Source of the DNA: Shigella phage JK32
Length of the DNA: 64,000 nt
Sequence record: MK962753.1
Strand: one strand, 5' to 3'
Numbering within the stretch: the stretch's first letter is position 1; every line of letters starts with the position of its first letter. A program made the translations under genes and the position numbers. Below the pieces are notes generated by a model. It saw nothing but the letters and a program-made list of their open reading frames with translations, ran no database searches and had not been told where the DNA came from. Below, in pieces: positions 3,207-52,953 of the stretch.

Positions 3207-5030
3207 TTATGATTGCATCCAAATTTTGCGTTGATCTGCATCTTCACTATAGAGCAAATCGAATAGCTCTTTATAGTTTTCCGGTAACGTGATGATCTCC
3301 ATTACAGGATCGTTGATCACGCGATGATAATCTGATTCTGTGAGCGATGCTAAACCTTTGATATATCGAATGTTGTAACCTTTGATATTATCGCGATCGT
3401 TCTCGAAATCTTCTAGGTCATAATACCATCGAACATCATCACCTTTCTTTGGTTCCGCAATGATAATAGGTGTTTTGATAAACCGGATTCGTCCATCTTC
3501 GAACAATTCAGGCCAACGAGCAAAGAAAGAGATCAGACTAGGCTTAATAGACCCGATCCCGTCAGTATCAGCGTCCGTCATAATCGCAATATTTTTGTAT
3601 TGCATAACTTCCAGTGCATCAACACCAAATTGCAAACCAGTGATCGCCATGATGTTAAAAATTTCGGCGTTCTTAACGATCTTTGCCTCTGGTTGTTCCC
3701 ACGTTGTAAGAGTTTTACCTCGCAACGGGAAACCGCCATGTAAATCTTGATCACGTACAGAGATCAGATAGTTGATCGCGGAATCACCTTCCGTCAAGAA
3801 CAGGGTAGTTTCTGCGTCAGTTCCAATAAGGTTAGCTTTAACGTGTTTTGCTACCTTAGCCCGTTTTGCTGCCTTTGCTGCCTTAGTCGCTGCCGCTTTA
3901 TCTGCTGCCTCTTTGCGTGCCAAAACTACAGCAATAATAGGCATGATAATGTTTTCTTTCTTCGCAATGACTTTAGCCAGTTTTTTAAAATCCAGATCAA
4001 TGTGTCGCTTGATATCACCAGTTGGATTAGTCAAGCGTTCTTTTGTCTGTGAATCAAAACGAAGGTTAGGCAATTCACGAACAATAAGAATACAGGTCAA
4101 TCCAGACTTAACCGCAGCTTTAGTAACATCAACCTTATATTCTTTCTTGATTCGTTTTACAATCTCTTCACAAAGATCATCTGTCACGTAGTCTACGTGT
4201 GTTCCCCCGTTTTTGGTAAACAGACCATTAGCAAAGGATACTGATTTAAAACCTTCTCCCTCGACCGCAGGAACTAGGGCAAGTGAAAAGTTTTTATCCT
4301 CGATGACAAACGGATCATCATTGTATAGTTTAGCATAATCCTTGAATTTGCTTGTTATCTTTTTGCCGTTAAATTTAAACGTGATCTTAGGAAAGATTAC
4401 ACTCAATGAATACATTCGGTCGCAAATCACATCTGAAATTTCTTGTGACATGATCATACCTTCAAAATGATCGAAATCGGGGCAGAACGTAACCTTAGTT
4501 CCTTTCAGTTTTGACGGCTTAGATGACCAGCTAATATTTTCTGCACCATTGGTACATTGAACGGTCAGTTCATTCTCTCCGTCACACGTCACACCAGTAA
4601 ACCAGGACGAGAAAAATGATGTGAGCGCGCTTCCGATCCCATTCATACCCATAGTAACACGATTTGTATCATCAAAGTTAGACCCTGCTTTAGCTCGTGT
4701 CCATGCAGCAACTGGTTGTGGAATCTGTTTCCCTTCTGGCGTCGTAACAATATGTTGCGGAATACCGCGACCATTATCTGTTACTGACACAATGTTATCT
4801 TTTATATCCACACTAATAACATTAGCGTACTCAAAATTAGTGCGGATCGCCTCGTCTACCGAGTTGTCGATGATCTCATCAATGATTTTAACCAGTCCAG
4901 GAACGTATGAAACTTTGGTCCATTTTCCAAATAGGAAACGATTGTGTGATTCATAAGTCGTTGACCCGATGTACATTGAAGGTCTCTTAAGACAGTGAGC
5001 GCGATCATCTAACAGCAAAAATTCAGACAT
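3207..5030 (-). CDS. 39: DNA topoisomerase II large subunit, single-gene form (equivalent to T4 gp39 plus gp60)
   Basis: 607-aa ORF; GyrB-like ATPase N-terminus and Toprim-like C-terminal region in one frame; size matches fused 39/60 of T4 relatives. Confidence 0.85.
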   Translation of the reverse strand: MSEFLLLDDRAHCLKRPSMYIGSTTYESHNRFLFGKWTKVSYVPGLVKIIDEIIDNSVDEAIRTNFEYANVISVDIKDNIVSVTDNGRGIPQHIVTTPEGKQIPQPVAAWTRAKAGSNFDDTNRVTMGMNGIGSALTSFFSSWFTGVTCDGENELTVQCTNGAENISWSSKPSKLKGTKVTFCPDFDHFEGMIMSQEISDVICDRMYSLSVIFPKITFKFNGKKITSKFKDYAKLYNDDPFVIEDKNFSLALVPAVEGEGFKSVSFANGLFTKNGGTHVDYVTDDLCEEIVKRIKKEYKVDVTKAAVKSGLTCILIVRELPNLRFDSQTKERLTNPTGDIKRHIDLDFKKLAKVIAKKENIIMPIIAVVLARKEAADKAAATKAAKAAKRAKVAKHVKANLIGTDAETTLFLTEGDSAINYLISVRDQDLHGGFPLRGKTLTTWEQPEAKIVKNAEIFNIMAITGLQFGVDALEVMQYKNIAIMTDADTDGIGSIKPSLISFFARWPELFEDGRIRFIKTPIIIAEPKKGDDVRWYYDLEDFENDRDNIKGYNIRYIKGLASLTESDYHRVINDPVMEIITLPENYKELFDLLYSEDADQRKIWMQS

Positions 5031-5036
5031 ATTATA

Positions 5037-5795
5037 TCATTCTCCGTCAGTTCGTTTCAGGTATTCCAATGCCGCATATAATCTTTGAGGATCGTCTTTG
5101 AACATCCCTAATCCGGCATTACATTTTCCACAAAGAACACCTCTTATCTTACCAGTCTTATGATTATGGTCAAGATGTTTCCACTTTTGGCGTTTTCTCT
5201 CGCCGCATCGTTCATTTATGAATTTTACACCGCATATCTCGCAATTGTCAACTCTGCCTAAAATTTCTAACGCTTCTCTTTTTGATATTTTTATACCATT
5301 TTCGGCATGATGATATGGCCTATCTAGTTCTCGCTCTCGCTTCTCAAACAATCGACACTCATCAGAACAATACTTTTGAGATGCGTTTATTGCAACAAAT
5401 GGTTTACCACATTTAGCGCATTCTCGTTCAATCTTTATGTTTTGTGCCTGGTCCAACGATGCGCAACGAGAACAGCAAAATTTATGATAGCCTCTAGAGT
5501 ATGTATGATAATTTACAGGATTTGGGCATCTTGCACACTTAACTATTCCTGTTATTCCGTGGCGCAATCTATAAACAGCCTCGTTATATGGTTGTTGATT
5601 TCTGAGACCTCCATTACAGAACTTAAACTCATTCCTTATAATCTGAAATTCCGCAGGATACAATTTTTCCATTTCTGGAATTTTATTTTCTTTAAAAAGA
5701 TTTGAGTTTAGTCTATTTCCGCTTTTCGCCTCCAGAACATCAACAATGAACTTTTTGATGTTCACTTTTCTCTCTCCAATACATAACATAACCAT
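5037..5795 (-). CDS. endonuclease VII-domain nuclease with N-terminal Cys-rich zinc-finger region (mob-like)
   Basis: C-terminal DHNHKTGKIRGVLCGKCNAGLG resembles T4 endonuclease VII catalytic region; multiple CxxC pairs. Confidence 0.55.
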   Translation of the reverse strand: MVMLCIGERKVNIKKFIVDVLEAKSGNRLNSNLFKENKIPEMEKLYPAEFQIIRNEFKFCNGGLRNQQPYNEAVYRLRHGITGIVKCARCPNPVNYHTYSRGYHKFCCSRCASLDQAQNIKIERECAKCGKPFVAINASQKYCSDECRLFEKRERELDRPYHHAENGIKISKREALEILGRVDNCEICGVKFINERCGERKRQKWKHLDHNHKTGKIRGVLCGKCNAGLGMFKDDPQRLYAALEYLKRTDGE

Positions 5796-41517: not shown

Positions 41518-41811
41518 TTAACCATTAATCTTGTTTTTGACTACAAAGGATCGGAACTCATCAAAACCACCGATATAATCACCATTATAGAAAATCTGCG
41601 GCATGGTGGCAATAACTTCTACCCCTGCGCGATCCTGAATGTCGGCAATGATAGAATCAATCTTTACCGGACGACCGTTTTCGTCCACACCATCATTAAC
41701 CGGAATGTAGATGTAAGGGATCTTACGCGCTTCACAAAGGCGCTTTGCATTCTGGCAATACTTACAGTTGTAACCTTCAAAACCAAAAATTTCTACCATG
41801 TTATACCTCAA
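41518..41811 (-). CDS. nrdC: glutaredoxin/thioredoxin (NrdC-like)
   Basis: CKYCQNAKRL redox site and TMPQIFYNGDYIGGFDEF resemble T4 NrdC. Confidence 0.7.
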   Translation of the reverse strand: MRYNMVEIFGFEGYNCKYCQNAKRLCEARKIPYIYIPVNDGVDENGRPVKIDSIIADIQDRAGVEVIATMPQIFYNGDYIGGFDEFRSFVVKNKING

Positions 41812-45255: not shown

Positions 45256-45496
45256 AGTTTACCCACTCAACAAGATCTTTACCTAACTCGAAAGCCCATT
45301 CTCGGTCTTGCTTTACGTTTTGTAGGTATGGACTTTCTGACACTCTACGAAGTGATGTTGTCGTAACAAGAATGATCCCCGGAATGGTCGGATGTTCCTT
45401 TCCATATACAATAGGACGCGAGTCACTATCAATACCTTGTAAGAAGGTGTATCCTGAATCACTTAGAATCATATACTTTTTCATTTCACACATCAC
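45155..45496 (-). CDS. hypothetical protein
   Basis: 113-aa ORF. Confidence 0.3.
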   Translation of the reverse strand: MMCEMKKYMILSDSGYTFLQGIDSDSRPIVYGKEHPTIPGIILVTTTSLRRVSESPYLQNVKQDREWAFELGKDLVEWVNCEDKNQRNHERKIARIVQRRKLDEIKNRILQSM

Positions 45497-45750
45497 AGTT
45501 TCCTCAACCAGTTATTAAAGCGAGCAAACCATGATGCTTTTCGTGCTTCTTTTACTTTATGTGCACGTAAACTACTGAAACACCATTCATAATCATCACT
45601 GAAACATGATTCAACAGGAACACCCGCATTTCGTAGTTCTCTGGTCTTTATCATGAATCCTTGACATAAGGGGCGACCTTCAACAATGATAGGAAGTTTA
45701 ACTTTTTCCATGAAAGTATACCCAGCACGGTCAATAATTTCAATTTTCAT
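45493..45750 (-). CDS. hypothetical protein
   Basis: 85-aa ORF. Confidence 0.35.
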   Translation of the reverse strand: MKIEIIDRAGYTFMEKVKLPIIVEGRPLCQGFMIKTRELRNAGVPVESCFSDDYEWCFSSLRAHKVKEARKASWFARFNNWLRKL

Positions 45751-45995
45751 TTTACATTATCTCCATAGATCTTTCCATCAATATCAATTTCACCAGCGCG
45801 AACATCTAGGATAAGATGCGGTAGGTGTATGCAGTTTTCCCACCCTACGCGCTTCATTTCTGAAACAGTGACGTAAGCCCACCCGTTCGCTGTAATAAAG
45901 TCTACTTCAACCTTGAGAGGAAAGCAAGACTTTTCTATGTCTTCGAATCCGATAATGTGTTTTGTCGTTGAATATGGAATATATCCGATGATCAT
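45747..45995 (-). CDS. hypothetical protein
   Basis: 82-aa ORF. Confidence 0.35.
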   Translation of the reverse strand: MIIGYIPYSTTKHIIGFEDIEKSCFPLKVEVDFITANGWAYVTVSEMKRVGWENCIHLPHLILDVRAGEIDIDGKIYGDNVK

Positions 45996-46453
45996 TTTGT
46001 GATCTCCTTATACTCAACACACCATAAGCGGGTAGCCCATGATAAACGCTCATAACGCTGGCAGAAATCGGACCATAGATATTGTGTACCGTCTTGCATG
46101 GTTGAAATATGCGTTTTCTCACCTACTTTCACGAAAGAAGTATTCGATTTTGTGATCTCGACCGGAGTATATCCGAAAGCTGGTTCCAAGTCAACATCTG
46201 AACTAAATGCTAATTTAACAGAATTTGTTTTTCTGACCGCTGTCCGGTTTCCTTCTGGGTATAGCACAGCAGGTTTAGCGCCTAAGCGGATAAACTCAGT
46301 GTTTTTAATGAACAGAATATCATGATAACCGTCATATTCCGACACTTCCATAGTAACAGGAAAATCGACATGTTCTAAACCTGGTAGATCTCGCATATCA
46401 TGAAATGTAGCCATCAACTTTTTCATCTTGTATTCCTCACTCTTCTGTTTCAT
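45992..46453 (-). CDS. hypothetical protein
   Basis: 153-aa ORF. Confidence 0.4.
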   Translation of the reverse strand: MKQKSEEYKMKKLMATFHDMRDLPGLEHVDFPVTMEVSEYDGYHDILFIKNTEFIRLGAKPAVLYPEGNRTAVRKTNSVKLAFSSDVDLEPAFGYTPVEITKSNTSFVKVGEKTHISTMQDGTQYLWSDFCQRYERLSWATRLWCVEYKEITK

Positions 46454-46673
46454 TTCTTTTATATGGTACTATAACAGGATTAATACAGCAAGCACCAATT
46501 ACGTTATGAGCACCACAATTTAAGCATTTATAATCATGGAACTTATTAAGGAATCGACCAAACTCATAACCGACTAGCGCCGCATGTACTTGAGTCTCGA
46601 TCTCATCCATATCAGCCAATGTTTTAACCTTCATAGTATAATCCTCAAACGGTAGTTTTGCGAAGATGGTCAT
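46437..46673 (-). CDS. hypothetical protein
   Basis: 78-aa ORF. Confidence 0.35.
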   Translation of the reverse strand: MTIFAKLPFEDYTMKVKTLADMDEIETQVHAALVGYEFGRFLNKFHDYKCLNCGAHNVIGACCINPVIVPYKRNETEE

Positions 46674-46935
46674 TACATGCTTTTAATGCATCAGTCGCGG
46701 TGTCATAGCGAGTATTATCATAGCACCAGTAACCATCGGTCAACTGATAAATCAATCCATCCCTTTTAGCTTCGATGAAAGATAACTCTTTGAAAGTTTC
46801 TACTTTCTTTGCTGATACTCCACGGTCACGGCGCTTATAGAGTTTAGCTAAAATGCGTTCAGCTTGTTCCTCTTTATCACCAGACAGATCCCAAATAATG
46901 TTGCGGATATGTTTGATTAATTGTTCAGTGGTCAT
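46645..46935 (-). CDS. hypothetical protein
   Basis: 96-aa ORF after promoter cassette. Confidence 0.35.
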   Translation of the reverse strand: MTTEQLIKHIRNIIWDLSGDKEEQAERILAKLYKRRDRGVSAKKVETFKELSFIEAKRDGLIYQLTDGYWCYDNTRYDTATDALKACNDHLRKTTV

Positions 46936-46964
46936 CTTTGATTCTCCTTAGTTGGTATGTGTGC

Positions 46965-46992
46965 ATTATAGCACTATGATTTTCATTGTCAA
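46965..46992 (-). promoter_or_regulatory. early sigma70-like promoter (minus TTGACA 46992-46987, TATAAT 46970-46965)
   Basis: Consensus hexamers, 16-nt spacer. Confidence 0.55.
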
Positions 46993-47002
46993 CAACTAAA
47001 AA

Positions 47003-47029
47003 CAAAAAAGGCTACCCCGAAGGATAGCC
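47003..47029 (-). terminator. putative rho-independent terminator after adhesin-like gene
   Basis: Imperfect GC hairpin with UUCG-type loop followed by T-run on minus strand. Confidence 0.4.
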
Positions 47030-47036
47030 CATAAAA

Positions 47037-47816
47037 TTACACGCGAGCACCGTAGATCGTGCCTACTTTATCCCAGCGAGGGGCATTGCCAGTAACAGCC
47101 TTACCAGCCGCTCCGCCATTATATTCCGACCCCTGTCCACGGATATTACATTTACCACCAGCACCACCAGCATCACCACCGTTACCGCCATTATATACAC
47201 CGTTGACAGACCCCTTACCTGGCGCGGAAATAGTACCAGCAGTAGCACCCCGTTCCATATTAGCAGACCCACCGGCAGCACCAAATGGACGACCGCCACC
47301 TCCACCAAAAGTCAATTTCATTTGTGAAAAAGGAGAATAATACCCGCCGCCACCGCCGCCACCACCGCCGCAAATAGCGCCGTTATTTGTGATGCGTAAG
47401 CGTGTGCCTATACCGTTGTTAATTGCATTACCACCAGCACCACCAGCGGAGTTATTGCCACCATTACCACCACGCCCCCAAACATGAACACCTGCGTTAA
47501 TGATCAATGTTACATATTCGTTTGTTAACGAGCTAGGGAAGTCAAGACAAGGAACGCCAGTAGATTGGGAAACAATATTACCTGTGATAGTAATTACTAC
47601 CGGAGTAGATCCTTGTGCTTTCATCCAGTTAATAAGAGTGTCTTTATTGTAAGAGTTACTAGCGCCAATGCTATAATGAATCTCTTTAGAGCGTCCGACC
47701 ATCGCCGACATATACGCCGGACGACCTAAGCGAACAGCTTGCATTGCGGCGCTCATCCACCGTTGACCAGTCTCGGACACAGCCGATGATCCGACCCAAC
47801 CTGCTTTAATTGCCAT
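47037..47816 (-). CDS. glycine-rich protein resembling T2-type gp38 tail-fibre adhesin
   Basis: 259-aa ORF; N-terminus MAIKAGWVGSSAVSETGQRWMS and repeated glycine-rich motifs (GRGGNGGNNSAGGAGGNA, GGGGGGGGGY, FGGGGGRPFGAAGG) recalled as typical of T2/T6 gp38. Confidence 0.45.
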   Translation of the reverse strand: MAIKAGWVGSSAVSETGQRWMSAAMQAVRLGRPAYMSAMVGRSKEIHYSIGASNSYNKDTLINWMKAQGSTPVVITITGNIVSQSTGVPCLDFPSSLTNEYVTLIINAGVHVWGRGGNGGNNSAGGAGGNAINNGIGTRLRITNNGAICGGGGGGGGGYYSPFSQMKLTFGGGGGRPFGAAGGSANMERGATAGTISAPGKGSVNGVYNGGNGGDAGGAGGKCNIRGQGSEYNGGAAGKAVTGNAPRWDKVGTIYGARV

Positions 47817-47870
47817 AAAGTTTCCTCACAAGAAAAGCCCCAATTAAGGGGCATTGATTAATAATATTAC

Positions 47871-48092
47871 TTAGATGACCTCTGCTTCACCATTCAGGAA
47901 GAAAGACCATGTTTTGTTAGGATAGCGAAGCGCCCATGATTCAGCAGTTTTAACACCAGCTTCGAACAATTGACGGCTGGTTACTTTAGCCATACCATCT
48001 TCGATGGCAACGTTTTCAATAATCATCGGGTACTTAGCGCCACGCATGAAACCGAAGCCAGCGGAAGATTTGATAATTTTAACAGTTGCCAT
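47871..48092 (-). CDS. hypothetical protein
   Basis: 73-aa ORF. Confidence 0.35.
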   Translation of the reverse strand: MATVKIIKSSAGFGFMRGAKYPMIIENVAIEDGMAKVTSRQLFEAGVKTAESWALRYPNKTWSFFLNGEAEVI

Positions 48093-48133: not shown

Positions 48134-48162
48134 ATTATGCAATAACACCGGATCGCTGTCAA
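48134..48162 (-). promoter_or_regulatory. early sigma70-like promoter (minus TTGACA 48162-48157, CATAAT 48139-48134)
   Basis: Direct reading, 17-nt spacer. Confidence 0.5.
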
Positions 48163-49450: not shown

Positions 49451-51589
49451 TTAAGGATTTCGGCCAGGGTAATGCTTAAATCGACCGTAACCAGTTTCAA
49501 TGCTCATATCTCGTTGACGCACAATCGCCCAATAACCGTTGCAGGAATCTTGAAGATATAGATCCTTACCTTTTAGGAACTCATTAAAAATAGTGATCTG
49601 CCAATCATAATAGACCGCATCAGCAAGACTACCCATCCAACCGTGCGGATCTTCCATCAGTTCGACAAGTTCATCAATTACCCAATATGGACAAGGGCTA
49701 AATTTACCCTTACTAAAATCGCTGAACATAGTAACGATCTTGACTTCCGGTCGAGGCTGATCGGGAATATCTGGACGTTTGTTAACTACGACTTGCACAT
49801 ATTTTGTGTAGCCTACAATTTCACCTTCATCTAAGTTAGTGTTATTGTTTTTGTCGGCAAATGCAACAAATTTGTAAACACCAGAATCGTTTAATGTTGC
49901 ATTAGCTTTACGATATACCGGAACACTGGAATCTGCAATAGGTAATTTAATACCACTTTTACTAAATTCATAGGTCGGCACATAGTTAGATGGCGGTTTA
50001 ATCATGGTTGCTTCCAGCACCAACGGATCACCCTCAGTAATTTGCACCGGATGCGGACCGTCAAATTCCATATTAGGAATTACTTCAACTTTATAGGTTG
50101 CACGTCCTGCAATATCATATCCGGTATGCGCACTATGAGGATCTCGGCTAGGGCTATCGCGATATTCATGAGACCAGATACCATTATGTTCTTTATCCGC
50201 CGCATCAGTAATCTTATATTCTTTCGTTTCAATCGGCAATTCTGTTACAAGAACATCGTTTTTCAAAATTGCTAACGAACGAGTTTGAGTCGGGTCATTA
50301 CTTGCTGGCGGTTCTGGATCAACAATTTTAATAACAATAGGTTCCCCAACCTCAATACCGCTATAATCATGCTCGACGTCATAGATATCTAACATACGGC
50401 GATCATAAAATAATGGGCGAGAAGTTGGAGTTCTCTGCGGATCATCATCACGCGCAGGAGCTACCAACAATTGCAGGGCTACACTATTATCATATTGCAA
50501 TTTCTCAAGACTAATACGGTCATAACCAGGATCACCATATTTCTTGCTTTGTAATTGCGTACCACCTAACATCCACGTAAAGTAGACATTATTTGTTAAT
50601 AAACCATAATGTCGGTTCCATGAATTATCAACAGGGGAAACTGGCATATCAATACTAACAGAAGACCCAGAAGGATAACGAAATTCAATAGCAGAAAAAT
50701 CTCGGCTAAAAAATTCGTTTTCCTTGACGTTAACGCGGAATCGATGGCGCTGACCATCCAGATACGATTCACTACTACCAGGACCATTTTCAACCTTATA
50801 GGAACGAATACAAGCGACATAATCACCTGCATCTGCTTCGGTAGCATGTTTCGTCACATATAAAGTTTTATTCTTTGATTCATAAACCAAAGTACCATCG
50901 CCACGTTCCAGACGATAACGAACTATGGTATGTTCAGCGTCATTTGGGGCATCGTCTTCTACAGTATAATAGGCAGGTGCATATTTTTGTACATTGAATA
51001 CAGCTAAATTTTCTCGAATTGTTGCTGTAAACGGATATACAAATTTAACATCACCTGTTTCGTCGCTTAATTCCATTCGATAAAGACCGGAAAATTCAGG
51101 CCATGCGAATTTTGCAATTTTAAATTCACGATGATCCAATCCCAAATCACCATCCACGGAATCAACTAGACCATTATTATAATACAAGTCAACAGAGATA
51201 TTAGCAGGAATATTACTACGAAAAACAATTTTCGCTTTAAGTTCATCACCAATATTAAATGATGTCGGAGGATATACATGTTCAACATATGGATTATCAA
51301 ATAACTTAAATGTAAAGTTTTCCGTGCCAATATCGATAGAATCACCACTAAATGATGTGTCGCCTAGCGCATAACCTCGAACGTTTACAGACCATCCGGT
51401 AACATCGTCTTCTTTAACGGAATCCAATGTAAATGTCGGAGAGGCACTTGTTGCTATAATCTGGTCATTTTTCTTCCAGACATAACCTTTTTTCGGTTTT
51501 GTTGAATCAGGGCTTTCATCAACAATACAGCAGCTAAAATCGTGCGGCATCCAAATCATATTATTGACCGTGGTGTTTACTACTGCCAT
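49451..51589 (-). CDS. large protein with probable Ig-like repeats (possible virion decoration or fibre protein)
   Basis: 712-aa ORF; recurring D.G.Y...F/C segments (DAGDYVACIRSY, DSGVYKFVAF) suggest Ig-like beta-sandwiches; inference. Confidence 0.35.
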   Translation of the reverse strand: MAVVNTTVNNMIWMPHDFSCCIVDESPDSTKPKKGYVWKKNDQIIATSASPTFTLDSVKEDDVTGWSVNVRGYALGDTSFSGDSIDIGTENFTFKLFDNPYVEHVYPPTSFNIGDELKAKIVFRSNIPANISVDLYYNNGLVDSVDGDLGLDHREFKIAKFAWPEFSGLYRMELSDETGDVKFVYPFTATIRENLAVFNVQKYAPAYYTVEDDAPNDAEHTIVRYRLERGDGTLVYESKNKTLYVTKHATEADAGDYVACIRSYKVENGPGSSESYLDGQRHRFRVNVKENEFFSRDFSAIEFRYPSGSSVSIDMPVSPVDNSWNRHYGLLTNNVYFTWMLGGTQLQSKKYGDPGYDRISLEKLQYDNSVALQLLVAPARDDDPQRTPTSRPLFYDRRMLDIYDVEHDYSGIEVGEPIVIKIVDPEPPASNDPTQTRSLAILKNDVLVTELPIETKEYKITDAADKEHNGIWSHEYRDSPSRDPHSAHTGYDIAGRATYKVEVIPNMEFDGPHPVQITEGDPLVLEATMIKPPSNYVPTYEFSKSGIKLPIADSSVPVYRKANATLNDSGVYKFVAFADKNNNTNLDEGEIVGYTKYVQVVVNKRPDIPDQPRPEVKIVTMFSDFSKGKFSPCPYWVIDELVELMEDPHGWMGSLADAVYYDWQITIFNEFLKGKDLYLQDSCNGYWAIVRQRDMSIETGYGRFKHYPGRNP

Positions 51590-52009: not shown

Positions 52010-52295
52010 TATATCGATTCTCCATTTTATTAAGCACAATAAATTGATTTGCGGCATACTCTCCCATCATGAAACAATGTTTAGCATCCATACATTTACT
52101 ACGTGCGTATGTTTTCATTATGTGGTCATGAAATTTTTGACTTGTCTCCACCGATGGTTGTATTTTGTTTATATACACGATCATAGCACCGTCGAAGTAA
52201 TCAGTAAAGTCACCAACAGGACATTGATCGGCACTTACGCTACCAACTGCCATAACGCATATACCCGCAACGAGTGTTTTACGAATAAATGACAT
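51996..52295 (-). CDS. secreted/periplasmic small protein (N-terminal signal-like segment)
   Basis: 99-aa ORF starting MSFIRKTLVAGICVMAVGSVSA. Confidence 0.4.
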   Translation of the reverse strand: MSFIRKTLVAGICVMAVGSVSADQCPVGDFTDYFDGAMIVYINKIQPSVETSQKFHDHIMKTYARSKCMDAKHCFMMGEYAANQFIVLNKMENRYNEIQ

Positions 52296-52327
52296 AAGTC
52301 ATTCCCCCAGATTAAAAATTTCAAGTA

Positions 52328-52335
52328 TATTTATA
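52328..52335 (-). promoter_or_regulatory. late promoter consensus TATAAATA
   Basis: Exact TATAAATA on minus strand about 33 nt upstream of start at 52295. Confidence 0.4.
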
Positions 52336-52356
52336 ATCTGGGGATATATTTACGCC

Positions 52357-52953
52357 TTAGTGGATAGATCCATCAATAAAATGTTTACGACAAACAGAAA
52401 CATATTTATCCTCTGCACCAACTTCTATTTGAGCACCATCGCGAATAACATTACCATCTTTATCTACGCGAAGGACCATAGTCGCTTTCTTGCCACAATG
52501 ACAAATACCCTTCATTTCGACCAGTTTATCAGCCAATGCCATTAATGCCGCAGATCCTTCAAATAGATTGCCCTGAAAGTCAGTGCGAAGGCCATAACAC
52601 AAAACAGGGATATTGGCATCATCAACCAGTGCACATAAGCCTAAAACATGTTCTTTAGTCATAAATTGGGCTTCATCTACAAATACAGCATCTGGACGCC
52701 AGCGATCCGGTCTACGCTTACCGAGTGATTCACGATAAACCAAGTCGAAAAGATCATCAGATTTAGTGAATGTGATCGCTGGAGCACTTAGACCAATTCG
52801 GGAAACAACTTCACTTTCTGAATCTCGATTATCAATCGCTGGTTTAAGAATTAATACTCGCATATCACGTTCGGTATAGTTATAAGCACTTTGTAATAAG
52901 GAAGTAGACTTACCAGCGTTCATAGATGCATAGTAGAAGTATAGTTGTGCCAT
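52357..52953 (-). CDS. tk: thymidine kinase
   Basis: 198-aa ORF; MNAGKST P-loop and C-terminal Cys cluster typical of TK1-type kinases. Confidence 0.85.
   Translation of the reverse strand: MAQLYFYYASMNAGKSTSLLQSAYNYTERDMRVLILKPAIDNRDSESEVVSRIGLSAPAITFTKSDDLFDLVYRESLGKRRPDRWRPDAVFVDEAQFMTKEHVLGLCALVDDANIPVLCYGLRTDFQGNLFEGSAALMALADKLVEMKGICHCGKKATMVLRVDKDGNVIRDGAQIEVGAEDKYVSVCRKHFIDGSIH

Follow-up and report, generated by a model that had tools for sequence, protein, structure and literature searches.

An open reading frame for a glycine-rich protein resembling the gp38 adhesins of T-even long tail fibers is found among early-type genes of Shigella phage JK32, and this locus raises the question why an adhesin gene should reside there, whether it represents an additional copy, a repurposed protein or the phage's own gene 38, and by which route it would be expressed. 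JK32 (MK962753, 176,009 bp) was assigned to the pseudo-T-even, RB49-like phages when it was published (PMC6832132), and the stretch of its genome analyzed here, in the following called the window, comprises 64,000 nucleotides of record MK962753.1, to which all coordinates refer unless stated otherwise. From the evidence presented below, we conclude with high confidence that the gene is gene 38 of this Krischvirus (RB49-like, "pseudo-T-even") phage, encoding a working adhesin and kept in the nrdC-tk region.

Gene 38 and Its Product

The gene starts with ATG and exactly occupies positions 47037–47816 of the minus strand, encoding 259 aa plus stop. The product, a predicted long-tail-fiber tip adhesin, is identical to QEG05391.1, deposited as "tail fiber adhesin [Shigella phage JK32]." The Shine-Dalgarno motif GAGG, read from the sequence at 47824–47827 (minus strand), 8 nt upstream of the start, is kept in RB49, GEC-3S and SSG23. 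A previous sequence-only reading had pointed to T2/T6-type gp38 adhesins with their glycine-rich motifs, and the similarity searches bear this out with strong matches to the gp38 family in Pfam, PHROG and PDB. At the N-terminus, aa 1–40 match positions 1–40 of the 40-position profile Gp38_N (PF21721, E = 6.1e-18), and the remainder (aa 45–259) matches the full 218-position profile GP38 (PF05268, E = 3.7e-73). PHROG 2056, "tail fiber protein; host specificity," is hit with E = 2.6e-102, and the receptor recognition protein of Salmonella phage S16 (PDB 6F45_D) aligns nearly end to end, with aa 1–257 corresponding to its residues 1–247 (E = 5.1e-51). By homology, the product is identified as a monomeric gp38 adhesin, for which the full-length match to 6F45_D would predict a polyglycine-II sandwich fold as in S16 gp38.

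Two functional parts can be delimited. Codons 1–47 (47676–47816, minus strand) correspond to a lineage-specific N-terminal gp37-tip attachment domain, as judged from the Gp38_N match and the pattern of identities, and codons 113–259 (47040–47480, minus strand) to a putative receptor-binding domain with glycine-rich motifs and hypervariable segments, marked by a drop in identity and a glycine content of 34% compared with 9% in aa 1–112. Within the latter domain, five glycine-rich blocks with short variable segments between them were counted. Accepting the homology to S16 gp38, the N-terminal approximately 47 residues would bind the trimeric distal tail fiber, gp37, at its tip, and the glycine-rich C-terminal domain would present the hypervariable loops to the host receptor. 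The attachment role of the N-terminus is adopted from PMC9569957, where the gp37-gp38 structure of S16 is cited for it. A 93-aa ORF on the plus strand (47059–47340) was dismissed as a gene, since its proline-rich translation arises when the GGN codons for glycine are read in antisense (as NCC).

Position of Gene 38 in RB49-Like Phages

The sequence-only reading had likewise placed the gene among early-region genes between nrdC and tk with no gene 37 next to it, and homology mapping and tblastn agree with this. Mapped by homology to the RB49 genes, nrdC is found at 41518–41799 and tk at 52357–52953, with gene 38 between them, and neither a gene 37 homolog nor a second gp38 was detected by tblastn in the 64-kb window. 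Directly upstream of gene 38 and co-oriented with it is a 73-aa ORF (47871–48092, minus strand) homologous to RB49 ORF080c and assigned to PHROG 7345, and the downstream neighbor is a 96-aa ORF (46645–46935, minus strand) homologous to RB49 ORF078c and assigned to PHROG 14129.

The 2.1 kb around gene 38 are 91–97% identical to RB49-like Krischvirus phages, and altogether 43 records cover this occupied locus. RB49 bears its gene 38 at 45367–46143 (RB49 coordinates) between the same neighbors, annotated as "38" (AAL15128); in GEC-3S (BN201_0080) and SSG23 the gene is found at the same locus with the same small ORFs on either side, and in Phi1 and JSE, which also match the 2.1-kb stretch, a gp38 annotation lies beneath the match. 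The tail-fiber cluster of RB49 is devoid of gene 38, as g34-g35-g36-g37 are followed there by ORF251w/Dc5 and then by the holin gene t, and displacement of RB49 g38 to a distant locus has been described (Trojet et al., 2011; PMC3157838). Hence, the nrdC-tk position is the standard gene 38 locus in RB49-like phages and a known lineage-wide exception; in this lineage, gene 38 is housed by the nrdC-tk hyperplastic region and not by the slot after gene 37. Because the locus is lineage-wide and already described, the displaced gene 38 of JK32 is ordinary: such genes have been known in the literature since at least 2011, are annotated in GenBank and have already been used in host-range and receptor studies. 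Pantoea phage Phynn was considered as a second displaced case and rejected, as its gp38-like match at 45.7 kb sits canonically, before the holin gene.

The labels given to gene 38 differ among Krischvirus records, ranging from "distal long tail fiber assembly catalyst" through "tail assembly protein" and "tail fiber protein" to "hypothetical protein." The first of these was inherited from the gp38 chaperone of T4, to which the adhesin is unrelated. Such mixed labels would mislead automated searches for receptor-binding proteins, and pipelines looking for these solely beside tail-fiber genes will overlook the adhesin in the majority of Krischvirus phages, a group that is often considered for phage therapy.

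Regulatory Signals and Route of Expression

Behind gene 38, the terminator and the downstream early-type promoter that the sequence-only reading had proposed were both found, at 47030–47009 and 46992–46965, respectively. The former is an intrinsic terminator (47009–47030, minus strand) directly following the gene, with a 9-bp stem, a UUCG loop and a U-tract (–14.7 kcal/mol, z –4.1), and the latter a perfect 12/12 sigma-70 promoter (46965–46992, minus strand; TTGACA-16-TATAAT with extended –10 TG) driving the next ORF. Together, they form the end of a PeSL-type (promoter-early stem-loop) cassette. Directly before gene 38, no sigma-70 promoter was found, the 54-bp spacer containing a hairpin and U-tract alone. 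This hairpin, located by the terminator scan between the 73-aa ORF and gene 38 (47837–47852, minus strand), has a 5-bp G+C stem, GCCCC-ttaatt-GGGGC, folds weakly (centroid –8.5 kcal/mol, z –1.55) and is invariant in sequence in four Krischvirus genomes; it is probably a leaky terminator or attenuator. The nearest upstream promoter is a sigma-70 early promoter preceding the 73-aa ORF (48134–48162, minus strand; TTGACA-17-CATAAT, 11/12 match), the equivalent of which is annotated in GEC-3S.

Tail-fiber genes of T4-type phages are late genes, and a structural gene made early alone would be unusual for these phages. It might therefore be expected that gene 38 encodes a true adhesin which is expressed late, either by read-through from the late core TATAAATA located after tk or from a non-consensus late promoter within the A+T-rich 54-bp spacer (taatattattaatcaat). 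The nearest T4-type late promoter core, TATAAATA (52328–52335, minus strand), lies between tk and rI on the same strand as gene 38 and corresponds to the predicted RB49 late promoter Pl:48756, and the hairpin before gene 38 is weak. However, this core is 4.5 kb upstream of gene 38 in JK32 (2.6 kb in RB49), a strong terminator with an 11-bp stem (49444–49419) intervenes, and the spacer is without any 8-mer within one mismatch of TATAAATA. When searching for TATAAATA, exactly or with one mismatch, or for ATAAATA, no site was found closer upstream than 2.6–4.5 kb in the window, RB49, GEC-3S or SSG23, the distance being 4.5 kb in the window and 2.6 kb in RB49. In line with this, Pl:48756 is the sole late promoter predicted in the region and none has been predicted at RB49 gene 38 (Nolan et al., 2006). 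RB49 is moreover without recognizable motA or middle promoters, and our literature search found neither an RB49 transcriptome (RNA-seq) paper nor any proteomics of virions. Late expression is considered a plausible though somewhat doubtful explanation for gene 38.

From the arrangement of these signals, early transcription through the leaky hairpin seems the more likely route compared with the late model. Transcription would start at the sigma-70 early promoter 320 bp upstream of gene 38, cross the 73-aa ORF and the weak hairpin and end at the strong terminator behind the gene. The gp38 thus made early would then wait for gp37, the C-terminal chaperone domain of which would be cleaved before gp38 binding.

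The late core at 52335–52328, the only one nearby, is itself situated inside the 5' arm of a very stable hairpin between tk and rI (region 52290–52360, minus strand; –23.8 kcal/mol, z –5.6). Early transcripts of tk could be terminated by this structure, late ones of rI being initiated on the same DNA.

Between rI.-1 and the gene 38 region, a 712-aa ORF is located (49451–51589, minus strand; QEG05397.1, JK32_00086), the exact match of which is unique to JK32 and which constitutes a singleton cluster at 90% identity. It was found in five phage records alone, Brandy, UPWr_E1, SSG23, SFHK24 and G2248, all at 73–78% identity, is absent from RB49 and GEC-3S and has left a 60-aa remnant in Phi1. Besides a weak Ig_3 match (E = 0.009), aa 510–693 match PHROG 1149, "Hoc-like head decoration" (E = 4e-6). 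With the late promoter at 52335 upstream of the ORF and no strong terminator separating the two, the product may be made late and belong to the virion surface. Among the RB49-like phages in PMC9569957, the broadest host range is that of Brandy49, which is one of the carriers.

A Presence/Absence Cassette Around Gene 38

In blastn comparison with FL04, a Krischvirus phage lacking gene 38 at this site, the alignment breaks at 47871, in the stop codon of the 73-aa ORF, and resumes at 46970, in the –10 hexamer of the downstream promoter. These breakpoints delimit a 900-bp presence/absence cassette (46971–47870, minus strand) comprising the hairpin, gene 38, the terminator and the –35 hexamer and spacer of the downstream promoter. 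In the FL04-type empty site, the 900 bp are replaced by 25 bp, leaving one promoter, TTGACAcggggagaaatccccgTATAAT, the spacer of which contains a stem-loop. By megablast, the empty-site junction was located in 57 Krischvirus records, being contiguous in 14 and split by the cassette in 43, where all three counts include RefSeq/GenBank duplicates; the number of split records agrees with the 43 covering the occupied locus. Additional places reported by megablast are not due to a second gene 38 but to a PeSL repeat, 46932–47010 matching a second PeSL about 2.3 kb upstream. An origin of the empty site by simple crossover between the borders of the cassette was rejected, the promoter spacer of the empty site being unrelated to either border.

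The empty-site genomes checked have gene 38 elsewhere. FL04 shows the canonical tail-fiber layout of g37, g38, ORF251w and t, and at least 9 of the 14 empty-site genomes bear gene 38 before ORF251w (FL04, LF73P4, KMB43, MIZ4, MIZ5, FL15, kvi, FL20 and G5211). In FL04, the g37-g38 module is 90–94% identical on the DNA level to Tequatrovirus phages such as T6, fPS-65 and KarlGJung, and the rest of the tail-fiber locus is 95–97% identical to RB49. The simplest interpretation would be that the ectopic gene 38 is the usual Krischvirus state and that some phages have imported a matched T6-type fiber and adhesin module and lost the unfitting cassette. In Lutz et al. (2025), gp38 of FL37 and FL38 is described as "not located near the holin," and these phages are treated as "exceptions."

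It had been suggested from the sequence that the JK32 gene could be an ectopic adhesin copy, i.e., an extra paralog alongside a canonical gene 38 that would provide two receptor specificities. For such a situation it may be argued that most Straboviridae, for example teqhal and Phynn, keep gene 38 after gene 37, that some Krischvirus phages such as FL04 do have a canonical gene 38 and that the JK32 genome, at 176 kb, is larger than any other in the group, with its tail-fiber locus outside the 64-kb window. Against this, the locus occupied in JK32 is the standard one in its RB49-like relatives, and canonical copies were shown in 9 of the 14 genomes having the nrdC-tk site empty. Records with the nrdC-tk copy align to the canonical FL04 locus from after gene 38, and consequently the FL04-type 3' end is absent from them, an absence that covers canonical copies with this type of 3' end. 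Moreover, SSG23 and PHB13, the closest relatives, each gave a single gp38 place in tblastn, and the 259-aa protein overall yielded 781 places in 773 records. Finally, Fig. 3 of Kaczorowska et al. (2019; PMC6832132), according to its legend, has Dc5 and not gp38 after gp37 in the pseudo-T-evens, JK32 included. An extra paralog is accordingly very unlikely, and gp38 seems to be encoded in the lineage by the displaced gene alone, a conclusion that for JK32 is based on its relatives and the published figure legend.

We tentatively propose that the adhesin gene of Krischvirus constitutes a self-contained, stem-loop-bounded host-range cassette which might be driven by the early sigma-70 promoter and alternate with imported Tequatrovirus g37-g38 modules. 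If true, synthesis of the adhesin would be uncoupled in time from the fiber it decorates, and the genus would switch between two mutually exclusive states, an ectopic own-type g38 and a canonical T6-type g37 plus g38. The 900-bp cassette, its lack in 14 of the 57 records and the lack of a nearby late promoter go beyond published statements, and neither early timing nor coupled replacement of Krischvirus g38 is spelled out in the literature examined. The polymorphism represents a natural experiment within one genus, ectopic own-type gene 38 versus imported T6-type g37-g38, that could show what matching of fiber tip and adhesin needs and whether an adhesin requires late expression.

The FL04 homolog of ORF078c (corresponding to 46645–46935 in JK32) is unannotated and interrupted by an in-frame stop (…tctggaTAAagagg…) some 20 nt ahead of the arbitrary point at which the linear record begins and ends; either a pseudogene or an artefact of assembly could account for this.

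Adhesin Function and Mosaic Receptor-Binding Half

Evidence for the role of the displaced gene comes from RB49 host-range mutants obtained by selection on a resistant strain, the genomes of which differ solely by gp38 E230K with or without Y231S (Golomidova et al., 2022; PMC9569957). As these host-range mutations map to gene 38, RB49 gp38 is a working adhesin, and it is treated as the long-tail-fiber receptor-binding protein in the same study, which reports binding of RB49 to OmpA and to certain O antigens; RB49 has also been modeled with OmpA (bioRxiv 10.64898/2026.04.02.716166). The partner fiber is of the corresponding type, RB49 gp37 ending in a Peptidase_S74 chaperone domain (PF13884, aa 871–930, E = 1.4e-11), and S74-ended gp37 is the kind that works with a separate gp38 adhesin. 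When comparing RB49 gp37 with solved structures, gp34-like trimerization domains were matched and the gp37 fragment of 6F45 was not, and for this reason the gp37-gp38 pairing is based on the Pfam S74 domain and the literature. A further reading, in which a glycine-rich protein has been repurposed for an early role outside the virion, for example, blocking of the receptor against superinfecting phages, could invoke the co-orientation with early genes behind an early-type promoter and the lack of a nearby late promoter, but is hardly credible given an intact N-terminal gp37-attachment domain 100% identical to that of RB49, RB49 host-range mutations located in gp38 and nowhere else, the lack of any other gene 38 in RB49 and the canonical gene 38 in 9 of the 14 cassette-less genomes, which fits an essential virion role.

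On the DNA level, the flanks of gene 38 are 94–99% identical to RB49, and identity falls to 60–77% in the 3' half of the gene (about 47100–47480). The same division is seen in the protein, which in comparison with RB49 is 100% identical over aa 1–47, 97% over aa 48–112 (98% for aa 1–112 taken together) and 76% over aa 113–259, the latter part showing indels in two hypervariable segments. These C-terminal residues are 99% identical to GEC-3S and 93% to Tequatrovirus teqhal, the whole protein being 98–99% identical to GEC-3S and SSG23. Comparison of these identities shows the receptor-binding half as a swapped mosaic of the GEC-3S type, nearer to some Tequatrovirus adhesins than to RB49. At the N-terminus, by contrast, aa 1–47 are only 64% identical to teqhal and 60% to FL04. 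In teqhal, gene 38 sits canonically in the order g37-g38-t, and its gp38 is 93–94% identical to the JK32 adhesin over aa 48–259, differing mainly in the first 47 residues. As divergence is concentrated in these residues, the attachment domain would stay with the resident fiber and the remainder be exchanged between genera.

The teqhal gene (4980–5765 of the teqhal sequence compared) is chimeric, combining aa 1–47 of the Tequatrovirus type with a Krischvirus-like part from aa 48 to 259, at a DNA identity of 78%. Such a structure points to an old exchange between the genera, the putative crossover lying just past the gp37-attachment domain. In addition, the first 54–64 residues of gp38 match unannotated regions of the approximately 60-kb Stx-converting/lambdoid phages P13368 and Stx1_2409 at 44–49% identity, and the fiber-attachment module seems to be common to phages beyond the T4-like group.

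With respect to the receptor, the variable segments YYSPFSQM(K/R)LT and CNIRGQGSEY are common to gp38 of JK32 and FL04, the latter being a Tsx-dependent adhesin. Tsx might, as a weak guess, be the receptor of the JK32 variant as well.

Comparison With Known Systems

The closest counterparts are gene 38 of RB49 and GEC-3S, which agree with JK32 in locus, neighbors, flanking hairpin, terminator, promoter and the architecture of the 259-aa product. The difference from RB49 resides in the receptor-binding half with its lower identity and the indels in two hypervariable segments. Like the gp38 of S16, T2 and T6, the JK32 protein combines a gp37-attachment N-terminus with a glycine-rich domain bearing hypervariable loops, and the partner gp37 ends in an S74 self-cleaving chaperone, for this lineage seen in RB49. 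Sequence has also been exchanged with Tequatrovirus adhesins, as seen with teqhal over aa 48–259. However, gene 38 of the S16/T2/T6 type follows gene 37 and precedes the holin gene t in the late tail-fiber unit, whereas in JK32 it is placed among early genes, about 110 kb away by RB49 coordinates.

A second comparison is with the PeSL cassettes defined for RB49 and phi1 (Arbiol et al., 2010; PMC2839356), where gene 38 is not mentioned as cargo. These cassettes share with gene 38 the location in the hyperplastic region, the order of a gene followed by stem-loop, consensus sigma-70 promoter and Shine-Dalgarno, and the presence/absence polymorphism, the empty site here being a lone PeSL whose stem-loop separates –35 from –10, as in the most frequent type of these elements (PMC2839356). 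A further hallmark of PeSL cassettes is their excision as encapsidated mini-circles, for which inverse PCR on phage DNA was used in PMC2839356. The downstream border of gene 38, with its 9-bp stem and 12/12 promoter, is a complete PeSL composite. In contrast to PeSL cassettes, the upstream border is a 5-bp hairpin without promoter, the nearest promoter being one ORF further upstream, and the unrelated spacer of the empty site is such that no simple crossover between flanking PeSLs can be reconstructed. The cassette around gene 38 differs most plainly in its cargo, which is an essential virion gene and not an ORFan.
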